DNA of 64,000 nucleotides from Eledone cirrhosa (lineage: Eukaryota), in NCBI GenBank assembly GCA_964016885.1, contig OZ024748.1, positions 51,274,001 through 51,338,000 on the forward strand, read 5' to 3'. The first letter of the stretch is position 1. Each line of letters starts with the position of its first letter. The notes under the pieces are model-generated. The model worked only from the letters and a program-made list of their open reading frames with translations. It searched no databases and had not been told where the DNA came from. This document shows positions 19,746 through 53,417 of the stretch, piece after piece. Both the position numbers and the translations under genes were made by a program.

Positions 19746-19819
19746 TTCGTGACCCCAACGGCTTAACTAGATCCGAACTCTTGAGTAATGGTGTAACTAG
19801 TTTTTACTGCCTCCATTCT

Positions 19820-19853
<34 letters not shown>

Positions 19854-19877
19854 CACATATATATATATATATATATC

Positions 19878-21706
19878 GGGTTTGTGTCAGGTAAAAGTAC
19901 CACAGACGCTCTTTTCATTGTACAACAACTACAAGAGATGTACCTAGCTAAAAGTAAACCCTTATACTTAGCTTTTGTTGACTTGGAGAAAGCCTTTGAC
20001 AGAGTACCCTGCTCCATTATCTGGGGGGCGCTTAGAAAACTAGGGGTTGATGAATGGCTTGTGAGAGCTATACAAGCCATGTATAAAGAAACAGTCAGCA
20101 AGGTTAGAATTAACAACGAATATAGTGAAGAGTTTAGCGTAAAAGTTGGTGTTCATCAGGCCCTGTTCTTAGCCCCCTACTTTTTATTATTGCCCTTCAG
20201 GCTATAACAGAGGAGTTCAAGACTGGCTGCCCATGGGAACTCCTATATGCAGATGATCTAACGCTCATAGCTGAATCAATGGCTGAACTAGAGAAGAAAT
20301 TCCAAACATGGAAGCATGGCTTAGAATCAAAAGGCCTTAAAGTTAACTTGTCTAAGACTAAAGTTCTAGTTTGTAGGAAGGAAAATAGGGCACCGGTCCC
20401 ATCTGGGAAATGGCCATGCTCAGTGTGTAGGAAAGGAGTAGGCAGAAACTCCATTTTATGTCCCAAATGCAAAGTATGGTTGCATAAAAGATGTAGTGGG
20501 ATCACAGGTAAGCTAACTAAGAATATAGATTTTATATGTGGCCGGTGCTCTGGTGCAATAAGTAGCAGCAAGTACCCACAGAATACTAGCACATTCCATT
20601 GCACAGATGGTACTATAGAAATAGTGGACACCTTCCGTTCCCTGGGTGACAAAATCAGCAGTGGGGGAGGGTTCTCTGAAAGTACAGTAGCTAGAGTCAG
20701 AACGGGATGGAAAAAGTTCAGAGAGCTTATACCACTATTGGCCGCTAAAGGGTTATCTCTAAAAATGAAAGGCAGGCTGTATGATGCCTGCATACGAACA
20801 GCAATGTTACATGGCAGTGAGACCTGGGCATTGTGTGCAGAGGATATATGCAGACTGGAGAGAAACGAAGCTTGCATGCTCCGCTGGATGTGTAATAGTA
20901 ATATATGTGAACAGCAAAGCATAAACGAACTAAGGGAGAAATTAGGAATAAGAGGGATCAGATGTTGTTTACTCGAGAGAAGACTACGTTGGTATGGTCA
21001 CGTGATGCGCATGAAAGACGACAGCTGTATAAAAAAAGTGCAGGGCGATAAAAATAGACGGTAGCCACGGAGTAGGCAGACCCAGGAAAACCTGGGACGA
21101 CTTGATAAATTCCGACCTCACACACTTACACTTCTCCAAGACAATGTCACTGGACCGAGATCTTTGACGCTACACAGTCATACAGAAGACCCACCTTGCC
21201 TAAGTACAAAGTGAAACCCACAGTCAGTTGGCACCTCTAACAAAATACCCCCCCCCCCTTCCAATACCCCCCCCCCCCCCCTGCTCCCCCCCCTTAAATG
21301 TGAAGTCATGTTGGTGTCACAACATCCAGTCCGAAACAAATGAGGTCATGTAGGTGTCACGACAAAAAAAAAAAGACACAATCCACGCTGTAATGTGGCC
21401 GTGTAGGTAACACGGTAAAAACCTCCCAGTCCACACTGTAAACGTGGTTGGTGTTAGGAAGGGCATTCAGCCGTAGAAAACCCGCCAGACAGTCCACGCT
21501 GTAATGTGGCCGTGTAGGCAACACGGTAAAAACCTCCCAGTCCACACTGTAAACGTGGTTGGTGTTAGGAAGGGCATTCAGCCGTAGAAAACCTGCCAGA
21601 CAGTCCTATACGAGCAGGACAACAAATCTTGCCTCAAGTGGGAAACCTCCCGTCCAAACCCATGCAAGCGTGGAAGATGGACGTTAAACGATGATGATGA
21701 TGATGA
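19878..21706 (+). mobile_element. RTE-clade LINE, 5'-truncated, frameshifted ORF2 plus 3' UTR and (GAT)n tail
   Basis: RT motifs STTDALF, FVDLEKAFDRVP, VGVHQ, LLYADDL; C4HC3 PHD finger; RRLRWYGHVMR; ~114-bp duplication in the 3' UTR; ends ggacgttaaacgatgatgatg. Confidence 0.95.
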
Positions 21707-23039: not shown

Positions 23040-23410
23040 CATCATCATCATCATCATTTTACGTCCGCTTTTCCCTGCTTGCAAGTGTGGGATGGGAGCT
23101 GATTCTGGCTTGATTTCTACAGCTGAATGCCCTTCCTAACACAAACCTCATTTACAGTGAGTGCTGGGTACTTTTTTTTTTCGTGGCGCCTACATGTCTA
23201 CTTTACAGTGTGGGTTGGGTGCTTCTTTTCTGTGGCACCGCCACGACTACTTTACAGTGGAATGATAGGGACCCCAGTCCCTATCATCTCATTTCTACAG
23301 CTGAGTAAACTGGAGCAATGTGAAATGAAGTGTCTTGTTCAAGGAAACAACACATCACCCGGTCTGAGAATTGAACTTACAAACTTTTGATTGCAAGGCC
23401 TATGCTCTAA
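23040..23410 (-). mobile_element. CORE-type tRNA SINE with RTE tail
   Basis: Reverse complement of the 49822-50166 family. Confidence 0.85.
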
Positions 23411-33163: not shown

Positions 33164-33400
33164 TATTAAAATAACATTAAAGTTTAAGCAAAGAATTGCT
33201 GCTTTCACCCTTAACGGATCTTCTTTTGTTTCAGAAGATCCCGTTAAGAGTGAAAGCAGCGATTCTTTGCTTAAACTTTAATCTGTTATTTTAATAAATA
33301 TTTACTCTATGGTTTTATATATTTTTTATATATATATATTATCCTTATCAAGCCCTCTTTGGATTTTAGTCTTCACATTTATTATTATTATTATTACTAT
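33164..33400 (+). mobile_element. Penelope-like pLTR with inverted 5' duplication
   Basis: Palindrome 33164-33296, hammerhead-like fold in the right arm, tail shared with 19512-19605 and 39231-39390, (TA)n on both sides. Confidence 0.65.
33228..33276 (+). ncRNA. Type I hammerhead ribozyme-like motif (U4A core variant)
   Basis: gttt CAGAAGA tcccgttaagagt GAAA gcag cgattct ttgc TT aaac: stem I gttt/aaac, stem III agcag/ttgct. Confidence 0.55.
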
Positions 33401-39230: not shown

Positions 39231-39390
39231 TAGTAATAATAATAAAATTGAAGACTAAAATCCAAAGAGGGCTCGATAAGGAAAATATATATCAAATATA
39301 TAAGAACCGTAGAGCAAATATTTATTAAAATAACAGATTAAAGTTTAAGCAACGATTCTTTGCTTAAACTTTAATCTGCTATTTTAATAA
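39231..39390 (-). mobile_element. Penelope-like pLTR fragment with 31-bp-arm palindrome
   Basis: Arms 39322-39352 / 39360-39390; loop cgattct is the stem III loop of the 33228 motif. Confidence 0.65.
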
Positions 39391-39464
39391 ATATATATAT
39401 ATATATGTTTTATATGTCTCTTGTGTTGAAAAGGAGGTCAAGTATGTTATAGATCACTAAATAG

Positions 39465-39513
39465 TTGCTCCGAAGAATCCAAACCTCGGTTTGGAGGAAA
39501 CAATTGTAAGCAA
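39465..39513 (+). ncRNA. Minimal type I hammerhead ribozyme motif (U4C variant)
   Basis: ttgct CCGAAGA a tccaaac ctcg gtttgga g GAAAC aatt GTA agcaa: 5-bp stem I, 7-bp stem II, palindromic ACAATTGT stem III. Confidence 0.7.
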
Positions 39514-41499: not shown

Positions 41500-41882
41500 C
41501 TATATCTATATATACTATATGTATATAAATATATATTATATAAATATATATATAATATATATATAATATATATATATATATAATATATATATAATATATA
41601 TATATACATATATTTCTAATATATATATATCTAATATATAATATTGTTATACTTGGTGAGAGTCATATTGTTGTAATAATATTGCCAGAATTAATAAGAG
41701 AACACACTCACTGTTTTGTTGGTTTTCGCTTCTGTATCTTTTATATCAGTTAATTTAATTTATTCGGTCCTCAATGTTTACCATTGACTGACCAACGGTA
41801 AAAAATATAGATATAATATAGGCACAAACACATATATATATTTAGTCTAACAGAGTTCTTTCGTTGCACATCTGTAACATGG

Positions 41883-42086
41883 TCAGTACTATACGAACAT
41901 GCCAGACAACAACACGACGGTAACATAGACAACATAGAAATAATATCTAAACCTAGAAATGACCCAGCAGACAGGCACATCAGAGAGGCCAGTGAAATAG
42001 AACTTAGAAGGCCAAAGCTAAACAAAAAAAATGAATGGAATAACAACAACACCCAAACAAACAATACTGATCTAAAAGAAATATAA
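41883..42086 (+). pseudogene. GIY-YIG endonuclease C-terminal remnant (Penelope-like)
   Basis: Manual translation SVLYEHARQQHDGNIDNIEIISKPRNDPADRHIREASEIELRRPKLNKKNEW...stop; S.L.EH...H and R.I.EA..I....P.LN motifs; no start codon, so absent from the ORF track. Confidence 0.75.
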
Positions 42087-42338
42087 ATAAAATAATTAAA
42101 TAAATAAATACACAGACAAGCGCAATAACAACAAACACATATAAACACACACTAGTAAACTAAGATAAAATACAATAACCAAAGCACAGTCAGCCAAACA
42201 CGAACACACATCAAACACTATACACACACGCAAACGCAAAGAAGAAGACAGAAATAAATAAATAATTAAATAAATAAATAGATTAAACAGATTAAATAAA
42301 GATGCCGTAGACATACAATACAACAGGAGGAAACATAA

Positions 42339-42390
42339 TAGCACCAATGACGATGTTGCAGATGTGCAACGAAAGAATTCTGTTAGGCTA
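42339..42390 (+). ncRNA. Hammerhead motif in pLTR (C3A in this copy)
   Basis: tagcacca ATGACGA t gttgca gatg tgcaac GAAA gaattc tgttaggcta; paralogs give CTGATGA (39017-39023 -) and CTGACCA (41879-41885 region, -). Confidence 0.55.
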
Positions 42391-42966
42391 TATATATGTG
42401 TTTGTGTCTATATTATATCTGTATTTTTGACCGTTGGTCAGTCAATGGTGAACATTGAGGACCGAATAAATTAAATTAACTGATATAAAAGATACAGAAG
42501 GGAAAACCAACCAAACAGTGAGTGTGTTCTCTTATTAATTCTGGCAATATTATTACAACAATATGACCCTCCCCAAGTATAACAATATTTGTTTCGACAC
42601 ACGATTTCATATCAAAAACCTCGCAAAACTAATATTTATAGAATATAAATATATATATAATTATAATATATTTATAGAATATATATAATATATACATATA
42701 CTTACATATATATATATGTATGTATATATATATAATATATATATATATATATAAATATACATACATATACATATATGTATATATATGTATATATATATAC
42801 ATACATAAATATATATAAAACATATATATATATATATATGTATATATATACATACATATATATATATAAAACATATATATATATATATTTTATATATGTG
42901 TATATATATATATATGTTTATCTATATATATATATGTTTATATATATATATATATATGTTTATATA

Positions 42967-45086: not shown

Positions 45087-45270
45087 ATAATTGTTTCTAC
45101 TTTAGGCACAAGGCCAGCAATTACCGAGTGCATTACTGGTTCTTTATTTTATCGACCCCATAAGGATGAAAGGCAAAGTCAACCTCGGCGGGATTTGAAC
45201 TCCGATCGTAAATAGCGTAACTATGCTGGAAAGCATGGTGTCCGACCCTCTACTGATACTGCTAATCCAT
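45087..45270 (-). mobile_element. Meta/MESC-like SINE
   Basis: Near-full-length match to 54001-54189. Confidence 0.85.
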
Positions 45271-45309
45271 GGAAAATGTAATATATATTTCTATAAAGTA
45301 CACACACAC

Positions 45310-45351
<42 letters not shown>

Positions 45352-45362
45352 GTGTGTGAGTG

Positions 45363-45393
<31 letters not shown>

Positions 45394-45395
45394 TA

Positions 45396-45433
45396 CGAGC
45401 TGAGGATCCACTAAGGTGAAACAATTGTTCTCG
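45396..45433 (+). ncRNA. Minimal type I hammerhead ribozyme motif, canonical core
   Basis: cgag CTGAGGA tcc actaa ggt GAAAC aatt GTT ctcg; lies at the start of a ~140-bp unique island in (TA)n. Confidence 0.75.
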
Positions 45434-45560
45434 GTATGGTGAACTAACTGTTGTGTAACCACTTCTACCAAACTCGTCCCATGGACTGAGTGCTCTACCA
45501 CTACGGATATTACCTTCCAGTGTTCTACCACTATATATATATAATTATAGTGGAATAATC

Positions 45561-45608
<48 letters not shown>

Positions 45609-46223
45609 CTGTGACTGAACAATGCCGTTGATTAAGGAATATGCAATTTGAAATATGTATATCCCAATATATGTAAGAATTGAGGAAACTAAGTATGTAA
45701 GCCTGGAAAGTAACAATATGTATAGGGGCATATCTGTTCCCCTTTTTTTCTGTCTAAAGTTGTATTTTACACAATTTTCTGAACTATTATTTATAGTTAT
45801 TGACTATTAGTATATTCGTTTGATTTGCGACAGACATTTCAAATTCACACACACGCAGCCCAGGTATCTCAATTTTCTTATCCACACAAAATTGTCTTCC
45901 TCACTGATTAACGAATGTGTGAACTCTAATCTGTTCGGATTGAGTTTTTATAAGAAAGACTTCATTACATTATTAAGTGAGGAAATGACCAAAGCTGTGT
46001 CCATTCTATTTGATAAGCTTTGTCTTTTAATATATATATATATGGATATATTCTCATAAATGCATATGCATTATACATGTGCAAGATTTATAAATTAAGC
46101 ATTATTTAGTTATATATATTTTACATGCTTTAAATATACAAATGCACACATATTTTGTACATTGAATATCTGTGTATTGCTTTTCATCCTTTTTTTGTCA
46201 ATAATGTACCAGTCTAATATTGG

Positions 46224-49579: not shown

Positions 49580-49765
49580 TTTATCCTGGGTTCAATCGGG
49601 GGTAACCACATAAGTAAGGTACTCAATACATAGAGTATAAATATTTTACATAGAAATGGCTTCTACAGGACTAGAGCTGTTTCATTTGGGAGAAATCATC
49701 AGCACTTCCTGATGATTTCTCCCAAATGAAACAGTTCTAGACCTGTAGAAGCCAGTTCTATATTA
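49580..49765. mobile_element. Penelope-like pLTR fold-back (52-bp arms) in (TA)n
   Basis: Arms 49651-49702 / 49709-49760, loop cacttc; relatives at 19650-19745, 32229-32310, 58228-58305 plus 58567-58610. Confidence 0.75.
49705..49751 (+). ncRNA. Type I hammerhead ribozyme motif, canonical core
   Basis: cttc CTGATGA tttctcccaaat GAAAC ag ttctagac ct GTA gaag: stem I cttc/gaag, stem III acag/ctgt, GUA site, weak stem II. Confidence 0.75.
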
Positions 49766-52133: not shown

Positions 52134-52327
52134 TAGGAAAAAGTATAACCCCGACGGCAGAGCTCAAGCCATTTCAACGGCTATTTCTGGTCCAGAAATA
52201 GCCGTCAAAATGGCTTGATCTCTGCGTCAGGGTCATACTTTTTACTATTACCCACTCTACTACCCTAAGTATTGAGTTCTCTAGTGCGTTATGGTCCATC
52301 TGGTTCCTTACCACAACCTCTTCGTTA
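52134..52327. mobile_element. Penelope-like pLTR fold-back (~57-bp arms) with hammerhead 3' half
   Basis: Arms 52134-52190 / 52192-52247; minus strand GAAA tggc ttgagctct gccg TC ggggtt. Confidence 0.6.
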
Positions 52328-52354
52328 TATATATATACATACAGATATATAGAT

Positions 52355-53417
52355 ATAAACTGCCCCAAATGCAAACAATGGGTACACAAGAGATGTAGCG
52401 GGATCTCAGGAAGCTTAATTAAGAATGTAGGATTCACATGCAGCAGCTGTGCTGAAACAGCAAGCAAACAGTCACAGGAAACAAGTACCACCAATCTCTG
52501 GGAGGGCCCTGTAGAAACAGTAGACAGCTTCTGCTACCTAGGTGACCGAATTAGCAACGGAGGTGGGTGCTCAGAAAGTACAATAACTAGGGTAAGAACG
52601 GGATGGAAGAAGTTTAGGGAACTACTACCACTGCTAGCTGCAAAAGGCTTCTCCCTCAGAATGAAAGGCAGACTGTATGATGCGTGTATCCGAACAGCGA
52701 TGTTGCATGGTAGTGAGACCTGGGCGCTGAAGGTGGAAGACTTACGTAGATTAGAGAGAAACGAAGCCTGCATGCTCCGATGGATGTGTAACAGTAATAT
52801 ACGTGAACGACAAAGCATAAAGGAATTGAGAGAGAGACTGAGCATAAGAGGAATCAAATGCTGCGTGCAGGAGAGGCGGTTACGCTGGTATGGACATGTG
52901 ATGCGTATGAAGGATGACAGCTGCATAAAAAGGTGCAGAGCACTAGAAGTTGATGGAAACCGCGGAGTGGGGAGACCCAAGATGACTTGGGATGAGGTGT
53001 TAAAAGCCGACCTTACCCAACTACACCTCTCAAAGTCAATGACACACGACCGTGACTTCTGGCGTCACGCAGTAATACAGGGTACCCGACCTCCCATGGG
53101 TACATGCTGAAGCATATAAACAATATGCCCCCCCCCCCCCCCACCGCAAGGTGGTCGTGGAGGTGCCACGGCAAAAAAGCACCCAGCCCACACTGTAAAG
53201 TGGACGTGTAGGCGCCACGAAAAAGCACCCAGCACTCACTGTAAATGAGGTTGGTGTTAGGAAGGGCATCCAGCTGTAGAAATCAAGCCAAAATCAGTTC
53301 CTGTATGAGCAAGGCATGGTCAGCCGACCAGACACTGCCCACAACAGGACAACCCGTCTAACCCATGCTAGCGTGGAAGAACGGACGTAAAACGGTGATG
53401 ATGATGATGATGATGAT
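52355..53417 (+). mobile_element. RTE-clade LINE, young 5'-truncated copy
   Basis: Stop-free frame 52355-53110 (CPKCKQWVHKRC...VDSFCYLGD...RRLRWYGHVMR...GRPKMTW), 3' UTR, (GAT)n tail. Confidence 0.95.

Follow-up and report, generated by a model that had tools for sequence, protein, structure and literature searches.

Hammerhead motifs in Penelope-like elements and retrozymes

Penelope-like elements (PLEs) have been described as showing 5' truncation, adjacent inverted copies, optional tails, microsatellite targets and hammerhead motifs near their 3' ends (available text of PMC8557442 and PMC3846280), and dispersed single hammerheads have been ascribed to truncated PLEs (PMC4209133). The minimal type I hammerheads of PLEs reported by Cervera and De la Pena in 2014 (PMC4209133) are mostly single and dispersed, with a 4-bp helix I and a palindromic helix III/loop 3; in the accessible sections of that paper they have no activity as monomers and low activity as dimers. 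The motif analysed here lies at 45396-45433 of the window, a 64,000-nucleotide stretch of Eledone cirrhosa DNA, within a short repeat copy referred to below as the island, and shares with these motifs the type I topology, the 4-bp helix I and the palindromic helix III. However, helix II of the PLE motifs shown in that paper is larger (in Schistosoma 7-8 bp), and these motifs have a G10.1-C11.1 pair and an extra base after A9; the motif in the island, in its CC/GG register, has none of the three.

Two further PLE systems offer close parallels. Poseidon PLE of Anolis, PAc, shares with the family of the island its AT-rich targets, a pair of 3' ends, which in PAc delimit an optional tail, a hammerhead upstream of the 3' end, the insertion of uncleaved RNA, proposed for the island too, and the lack of read ends at the cleavage site (available text of PMC11167929). 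According to the same source, uncleaved RNA is the insertion template and cleavage is protein-assisted, the PAc hammerhead needing the element's protein, while cleavage is dispensable for insertion in vitro. The PAc ORF starts inside the hammerhead, whereas no open frame follows the island's ATGs, and the two 3' ends of the island's family lie 64-79 nt apart, which is longer than the 30-40 bp of PLE tails unless two 30-nt units are counted. The Neptune and Naiad clades (PMC8557442) share a bias towards microsatellite targets, 5' truncation and adjacent inverted copies. Since Naiads, in the available text of that paper, lack canonical hammerheads, Neptune-like is by analogy the better guess for the clade of this family.

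Retrozymes form a class related to PLEs (bioRxiv 10.64898/2026.07.22.740005, in part). The axolotl motif HHR_Amex2 has, like the island, a 2-bp helix III with a tetraloop and a U-U mismatch below a weak helix II; its monomer cleaved 22% in 1 h and its dimer much better (PMC7229834, in part). HHR_Amex2 sits in 350-bp tandem repeats, whereas copies of the island's family seem to be scattered and to end in (TA)n. The literature searched yielded no paper that deals with this family or with hammerheads in cephalopod repeats, although subscription papers and the supplements of PMC4209133 and PMC8557442 may list some. Penelope-like families have been described in Octopus vulgaris in an article whose accessible text contains neither 'hammerhead' nor 'ribozyme' (PMC13282606).

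At 45396-45433 there is a genuine hammerhead motif, carried by a truncated and slightly mutated copy of a high-copy family that is probably Penelope-like. We put at roughly 75% the probability that the island derives from a high-copy PLE family, or from a non-autonomous derivative of one, as its 3'-terminal ~150 bp (pLTR region), having inserted into (TA)n and been truncated at 45392. It is largely an ordinary case, PLE-type elements being already known to carry such hammerhead motifs.

The motif and its variation in a high-copy family

The motif, read from the sequence, is 38 nt long, and the original prediction of a canonical CUGAGGA plus GAAA core, a cgag/ctcg stem I and a palindrome within that length is borne out in full (Table 1). 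The type I core residues C3 U4 G5 A6 N7 G8 A9, G12 A13 A14 and A15.1-U16.1 are all present, and the palindrome ACAAUUGU, whose computed self-duplex in helix III has an energy of -6.4 kcal/mol, is followed by U17. The NUH triplet is GUU, at 45427-45429, so that the predicted cut, claimed to follow GUU, falls at that place in the sequence, between 45429 and 45430. GUU belongs to the slower-cleaving triplets. It is listed as a cleavable hammerhead site in the available text of PMC3138052. The R10.1-Y11.1 pair at the base of helix II is absent: in the CC/GG register positions 10.1 and 11.1 are both U, and stem II is therefore only the 2 bp of CC/GG. An alternative register would provide an A-U or G-U pair at the cost of a 3-nt insert after A9. 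Natural hammerheads with U10.1-U11.1 have been reported (PMC3088659 and PMC7229834, in part), and the sequence supports the reading of 45396-45433 as a motif built like a type I hammerhead whose helix III is palindromic, of the kind that would work as a dimer.

Table 1. Features of the island and its flanks (positions in the window)
Feature	Position	Strand	Basis or remark
(TA)n run, 5' flank, likely insertion target	45366-45391	.	sequence; raw-read family depth drops ~40-fold
5'-truncated copy of high-copy repeat family	45392-45543	+	contig/read alignment
AT-rich patch, putatively the last 4 nt of a 6-nt bulge in the family's extended stem I	45392-45395	+	
Stem I, 5' strand, CGAG	45396-45399	+	sequence and descriptor scan
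Core C3-A9, CUGAGGA (DNA CTGAGGA)	45400-45406	+	sequence; N7 = 45404
Helix II region, tccactaaggt	45407-45417	+	U10.1-U11.1 mismatch, 2 bp CC/GG, 5-nt loop
Core G12 A13 A14 A15.1 (GAAA)	45418-45421	+	no variant at or above 5% in family
Helix III, palindrome ACAATTGT	45421-45428	+	2 bp plus tetraloop, 8 nt
U17 and predicted cleavage bond (GUU)	45429-45430	+	U17 with no variant at or above 5% in family
Stem I, 3' strand, CUCG	45430-45433	+	sequence and descriptor scan
Putative distal stem I, 3' strand, 7 bp	45434-45440	+	partner absent from window copy
Three TCTACCA units (45464, 45494, 45524)	45464-45530	+	exact 30-nt spacing
(TA)n at 3' end	45532-45543	.	sequence

Public sequencing runs were aligned to 45384-45562 (179 bases) at 80% likeness, using four of the 23 runs listed (X1, X21, X5 and X12). 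In X1, 5,022 of 16,285,364 contigs align to these bases and in X21, a RAD library, 11,894 of 12,467,656 raw reads do so; the family of the island therefore has a very large number of copies, depth being no copy number and summed contig depth being left out as a measure of it. X5 and X12, which were taken from among the runs with small shares in other organisms and guessed to be RNA, yielded 0 aligned records, and the list of runs that contain the sequence named no RNA run; neither result has a bearing on expression. Patterns specific to the family had 0 loci in metagenomes, viral contigs and prokaryote genomes; two metagenome loci found with a looser pattern have no stem I and were judged chance matches. 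Allele shares of X21 at 45423-45426 were left out of account: in this RAD library 1,829 molecules have an end at the AATT site 45423, so that reads across 45423 are enriched for changed sites. By inference, the 1,562 loose ends behind 45426, with an agreement of 0.33 (among the best 12 of 331 loose ends), are probably chimeras of this library.

Across the family, variation of at least 5% affects none of the 11 conserved core positions and 31 of the 127 others (Fisher p=0.054, a borderline value that is to be read with the tendency of aligners to favour conserved reads). At the free core position N7 (45404), A replaces G in 21% of each of the two runs. The window copy has A at 45410, whereas 98% (X1) and 92% (X21) of the family depth has G. 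A minor C at 45395 (10% in X1, 24% in X21) would give stem I a fifth pair, and a second subfamily (917 reads, among the best 12 of 331 loose ends) has a longer 5' strand of stem I, with N7 being A and loop II larger by one base.

Two variants of the family were compared in which the 7-mer ending 6 nt before stem I pairs at 7 of 7 positions with 45434-45440. The duplexes have energies of -5.2 and -7.6 kcal/mol, and 64 of the 16,384 possible 7-mers would pair in this way. The two variants differ at two positions at which pairing is kept by one-sided transitions, which is consistent with a distal helix and falls short of compensatory proof. Their sequences suggest that intact family copies have a bulged, extended stem I. 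The break at 45392 would then apparently fall inside the bulge and have removed the likely partner strand from the window copy; the TA flank now in its place forms 5 of 7 pairs with 45434-45440. Such a distal stem I would recall the canonical hammerheads of retrozymes more than those of PLEs.

The motif was also scanned for with a descriptor composed after it had been seen, comprising the exact core and an NUH triplet, with minimum lengths of 4 bp for stem I and 2 bp for helix III, and leaving helix II free. A chance arrangement with no hammerhead origin would agree with the matches of this descriptor in 11 of 100 block-shuffled windows, with the 0 Rfam matches at gathering score in the whole window, with the lack of a hammerhead family among the 64 Rfam matches at E<=10 in 45300-45620, and with fold z-scores near zero (0.32 and -1.16). 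However, once a palindromic helix III is required 0 of 100 shuffled windows match, and the family variation affects N7 and loop II while the core is left untouched, stem I being kept or extended in the variants; we therefore regard chance as next to negligible. As a control, a stem I of at least 4 bp was found in none of the 62 distinct core-plus-palindrome matches listed from at least 120 viral loci, and these viral loci were rejected as chance matches.

Ends of the island and proposed mode of insertion

Sequence of the family continues upstream of 45392 in 3,086 reads, with an agreement of 0.81 (among the best 12 of 331 loose ends), and therefore the family extends upstream and the island is a 5'-truncated copy. 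The depth of the TA flank is 2.7% (X21) and 0.3% (X1) of that at the start of the motif. The island does begin 3-4 nt before stem I as predicted, the (TA)n run being left at 45392-45393, but the weight that had been placed on this position is lost, since the start is a truncation point beyond which family reads continue. The patch at 45392-45395 would provide microhomology to (TA)n at the 5' junction. At the other side, the exact end lies between 45531 and 45543, where the island merges with (TA)n: the earlier statement that it ends in (TA)n stands, the run being entered at 45532, whereas the end then given, 45535, lies inside the run.

Among the best 12 of 331 loose ends, a (TA)n continuation is found in 1,873 reads behind 45543, 1,322 behind 45467 and 476 behind 45464, and a (TC)n continuation behind 45529 in some contigs. 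The family thus has 3' ends at the first and third TCTACCA units, and none at the second within the same set, so that both ends lie on a motif of 30-nt period; this period is kept though the sequences between the units are unlike. A joint from 45539 to 45507 indicates that the last ~33 nt are duplicated in some copies, and six joints switch to the opposite strand, forming inverted junctions. No end at the cleavage site was found among the best 12 of 331 loose ends or in the table of molecule ends. Just 3' of the island, at 45546-45567, lies a perfect 9-bp hairpin with a 4-nt loop, whose arms resemble the last bases of the island and which is missing from almost all family reads; it is possibly a very short inverted end duplication.

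As judged from these alignments, the high copy number, upstream continuation, two (TA)n ends, inversions and tail duplication match published PLE insertions. The hammerhead is near the 3' end, 35-115 nt upstream of the family 3' ends, and 5' truncation and adjacent inverted copies are represented by the truncated window copy and the six opposite-strand joints. No RT or GIY-YIG ORF tied to the family was seen in the 30-letter loose ends or in this copy, and no Pfam domain of PLEs was found in 180 ORF translations (159 of the 272 filtered ORFs of the window, the 113 shortest being left out, plus 21 others).

The island could also be a dispersed, truncated monomer of a non-LTR retrozyme, a class with short tandem monomers, a canonical type I hammerhead and circular RNA. 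The anatomy it shares with HHR_Amex2 (PMC7229834), the bulged distal stem I that it putatively had, a feature usual in canonical motifs of type I, and the solo monomers common in some retrozyme families (bioRxiv 10.64898/2026.07.22.740005, in part) speak for such an origin. We consider it unlikely, since the reads behind the 3' end enter (TA)n or (TC)n rather than a next monomer (among the best 12 of 331 loose ends), blastn finds no second copy of the island in the 64-kb window, and fixed 3' ends downstream of the cleavage site together with inverted junctions fit PLE-type insertion. Head-to-tail monomers of 150-450 bp were found neither in the window nor among the best 12 of 331 loose ends, and a 13-nt piece of the upstream family sequence had 0 matches in the window at 2 mismatches.

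Ends in (TA)n and 5' truncation occur in LINE and SINE insertions too. Hence, a SINE-like or LINE-derived hammerhead carrier mobilized by a non-PLE retrotransposon that targets (TA)n would be compatible with both borders, as well as with the lack of an ORF, and hammerhead-bearing SINE-like repeats have been described in Schistosoma (PMC6765202, in part). However, PLEs are characterized by head-to-head inversions, by tail duplication and by a pair of internal 3' ends such as those on the 30-nt periodic motif, and the 30 upstream letters hold no tRNA-like head, a stretch too short for exclusion; such a carrier thus seems distinctly improbable.

On the Penelope-like reading, we hypothesize that a PLE protein nicked the (TA)n run and that reverse transcription began at an internal site near the 3' end of an uncleaved RNA, because the island copy spans the cleavage site. 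It would have passed through the ribozyme and halted 4 nt past stem I, and the copy would have joined the target where the AT-rich patch at 45392-45395 could anneal to TA. In full-length tandem copies, two hammerheads might pair through the 8-nt palindrome and form a double hammerhead, which would cleave after GUU, slowly and perhaps aided by the element's protein.

The window consists of AT-rich animal DNA that is full of microsatellites and dispersed repeats. Its SINE-like repeats presumably resemble those of octopods; one of them, at 45093-45269 and separate from the island, has 18 blastn matches elsewhere in the window. LINE fragments lie at 19797-21061 and 52202-53107 and comprise RVT_1 followed by a PHD finger and, in addition, a second PHD-bearing frame. 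A second minimal hammerhead of PLE type, at 39463-39512 on the plus strand, shares the 8-nt palindrome of the island; its helix II has 7 bp, A9 is followed by an extra base, stem I has 5 bp including a wobble, U4 is changed to C and the site is GUA. The repeat copy around this second motif ends in a duplicated tail, and by sequence the motif is nearer to the published PLE consensus than the one at 45396-45433. At 41700-42900 a head-to-head inverted pair contains an ORF tail (41901-42038) with no Pfam match, for which the nearest Pfam-bearing Atlas cluster is GIY-YIG (15% of members, score 0.88), which is no more than a lead. This tail is followed by a degenerate hammerhead-like motif at ~42346-42390, the inverted arm begins at the motif core, and the whole looks like a PLE remnant of another family. 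Two further head-to-head inverted pairs, at 33166-33294 and 39319-39393, belong to one family with different truncation points, the former turning at the 5' side of a hammerhead-like core with no clear helix III. At 49680-49731 each arm of a short inverted pair has CTGATGA...GAAA, and the plus arm passes the strict descriptor without the palindrome. A CTGAGTA...GAAA repeat at 23301, 40647, 48908, 53660, 58367 and 60772 passes a one-mismatch hammerhead scan and was rejected as probably no hammerhead, G8 being replaced and the stems weak.

Stem II of the island had been proposed to resemble that of the hammerhead-like element at 33228. The likeness is visible but weak: the left arm has a local score of 29 and the right arm one of 23, and six of 3,000 random 75-nt pieces of the window score at least 28, with a maximum of 29. 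Kinship beyond the ~20 nt of core and helix II that the two share is unsupported, with no blastn match between them (word 7, E 10). The majority letter at 45410 would bring the element one base closer, and the likeness may reflect common hammerhead design.

Predicted folding and the ribozyme edge

The lowest-energy fold brings 45399-45407 together with 45427-45435 in a slipped register, in which both core and cleavage site are buried. The three helices (I, II and III, with 4, 2 and 2 bp) are formable, in a cleavage-ready fold that lies 8.2 kcal/mol above the ensemble. This gap falls to 7.4 kcal/mol with the majority letter at 45410, to 5.2 with N7=A in addition and to 3.4 with the 45395 allele as well. 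For the construct 45390-45445, the hammerhead fold has a probability of about 1e-8 in the monomer, and the double hammerhead has -15.1 kcal/mol against -29.5 kcal/mol in the tandem dimer; the two-strand double hammerhead of the 38-mer has -9.0 against -15.8 kcal/mol. All energies are nearest-neighbour values, with 7-mer duplexes for the distal stem, and because they include neither Mg2+ nor tertiary contacts nor an active hammerhead control, they rank variants better than they predict activity. As 45390-45445 is predicted to misfold, a negative cleavage result with it would tell little about the family.

We predict that the window copy is unlikely to cleave detectably as a monomer and that an engineered dimer might do so at slightly less than even odds. 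With no partner in the window, the distal stem I lost and the slipped helix favoured, the copy is probably a passive, inert remnant. The description of the motif as the best intact one is not upheld, given the likely loss of the distal partner, the rare letter at 45410, the 2-bp stem II and the slipped fold. An active self-cleaving site used by the host in a transcript would agree with the 11 of 11 intact core positions, which are to be expected in a young copy anyway. However, the copy is one of thousands of similar ones, part of its stem I is lost and its rare letter at 45410 makes it likelier that G12 is paired (P 0.77, whereas the majority letter gives 0.40), and we find host use very improbable.

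A further, speculative possibility, which we hold to be improbable, is that the hammerhead itself shapes insertion: its 5' edge would be a recurrent stop or template-switch site for the PLE RT, and with N7=G the slipped helix would keep most copies off until dimer or protein binding. Four of the six opposite-strand joints end at 45391-45394, which is also where the window copy starts (rough p 2e-4 under uniform ends, with each joint backed by a single contig or by few molecule starts), and two further inverted elements of the window break 5' of a hammerhead-like core, at 33225-33232 and ~41875-41880. Because the aligned stretch contains no family sequence upstream of 45392, the clustering at 45391-45394 is possibly an edge effect, and TA microhomology may account for the site with no role of the ribozyme. 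A start at 45392 is also not the main outcome, since just ~2.7% of read depth begins there.

The function of PLE hammerheads is described as an open question in the available text of PMC8557442. The island adds one family to a class of hammerheads already counted in thousands per genome. Since the family is young and of high copy number, has many junctions and includes natural variants in which the active fold is stronger or weaker, it would be a handy test set for the effect of the ribozyme on insertion starts.
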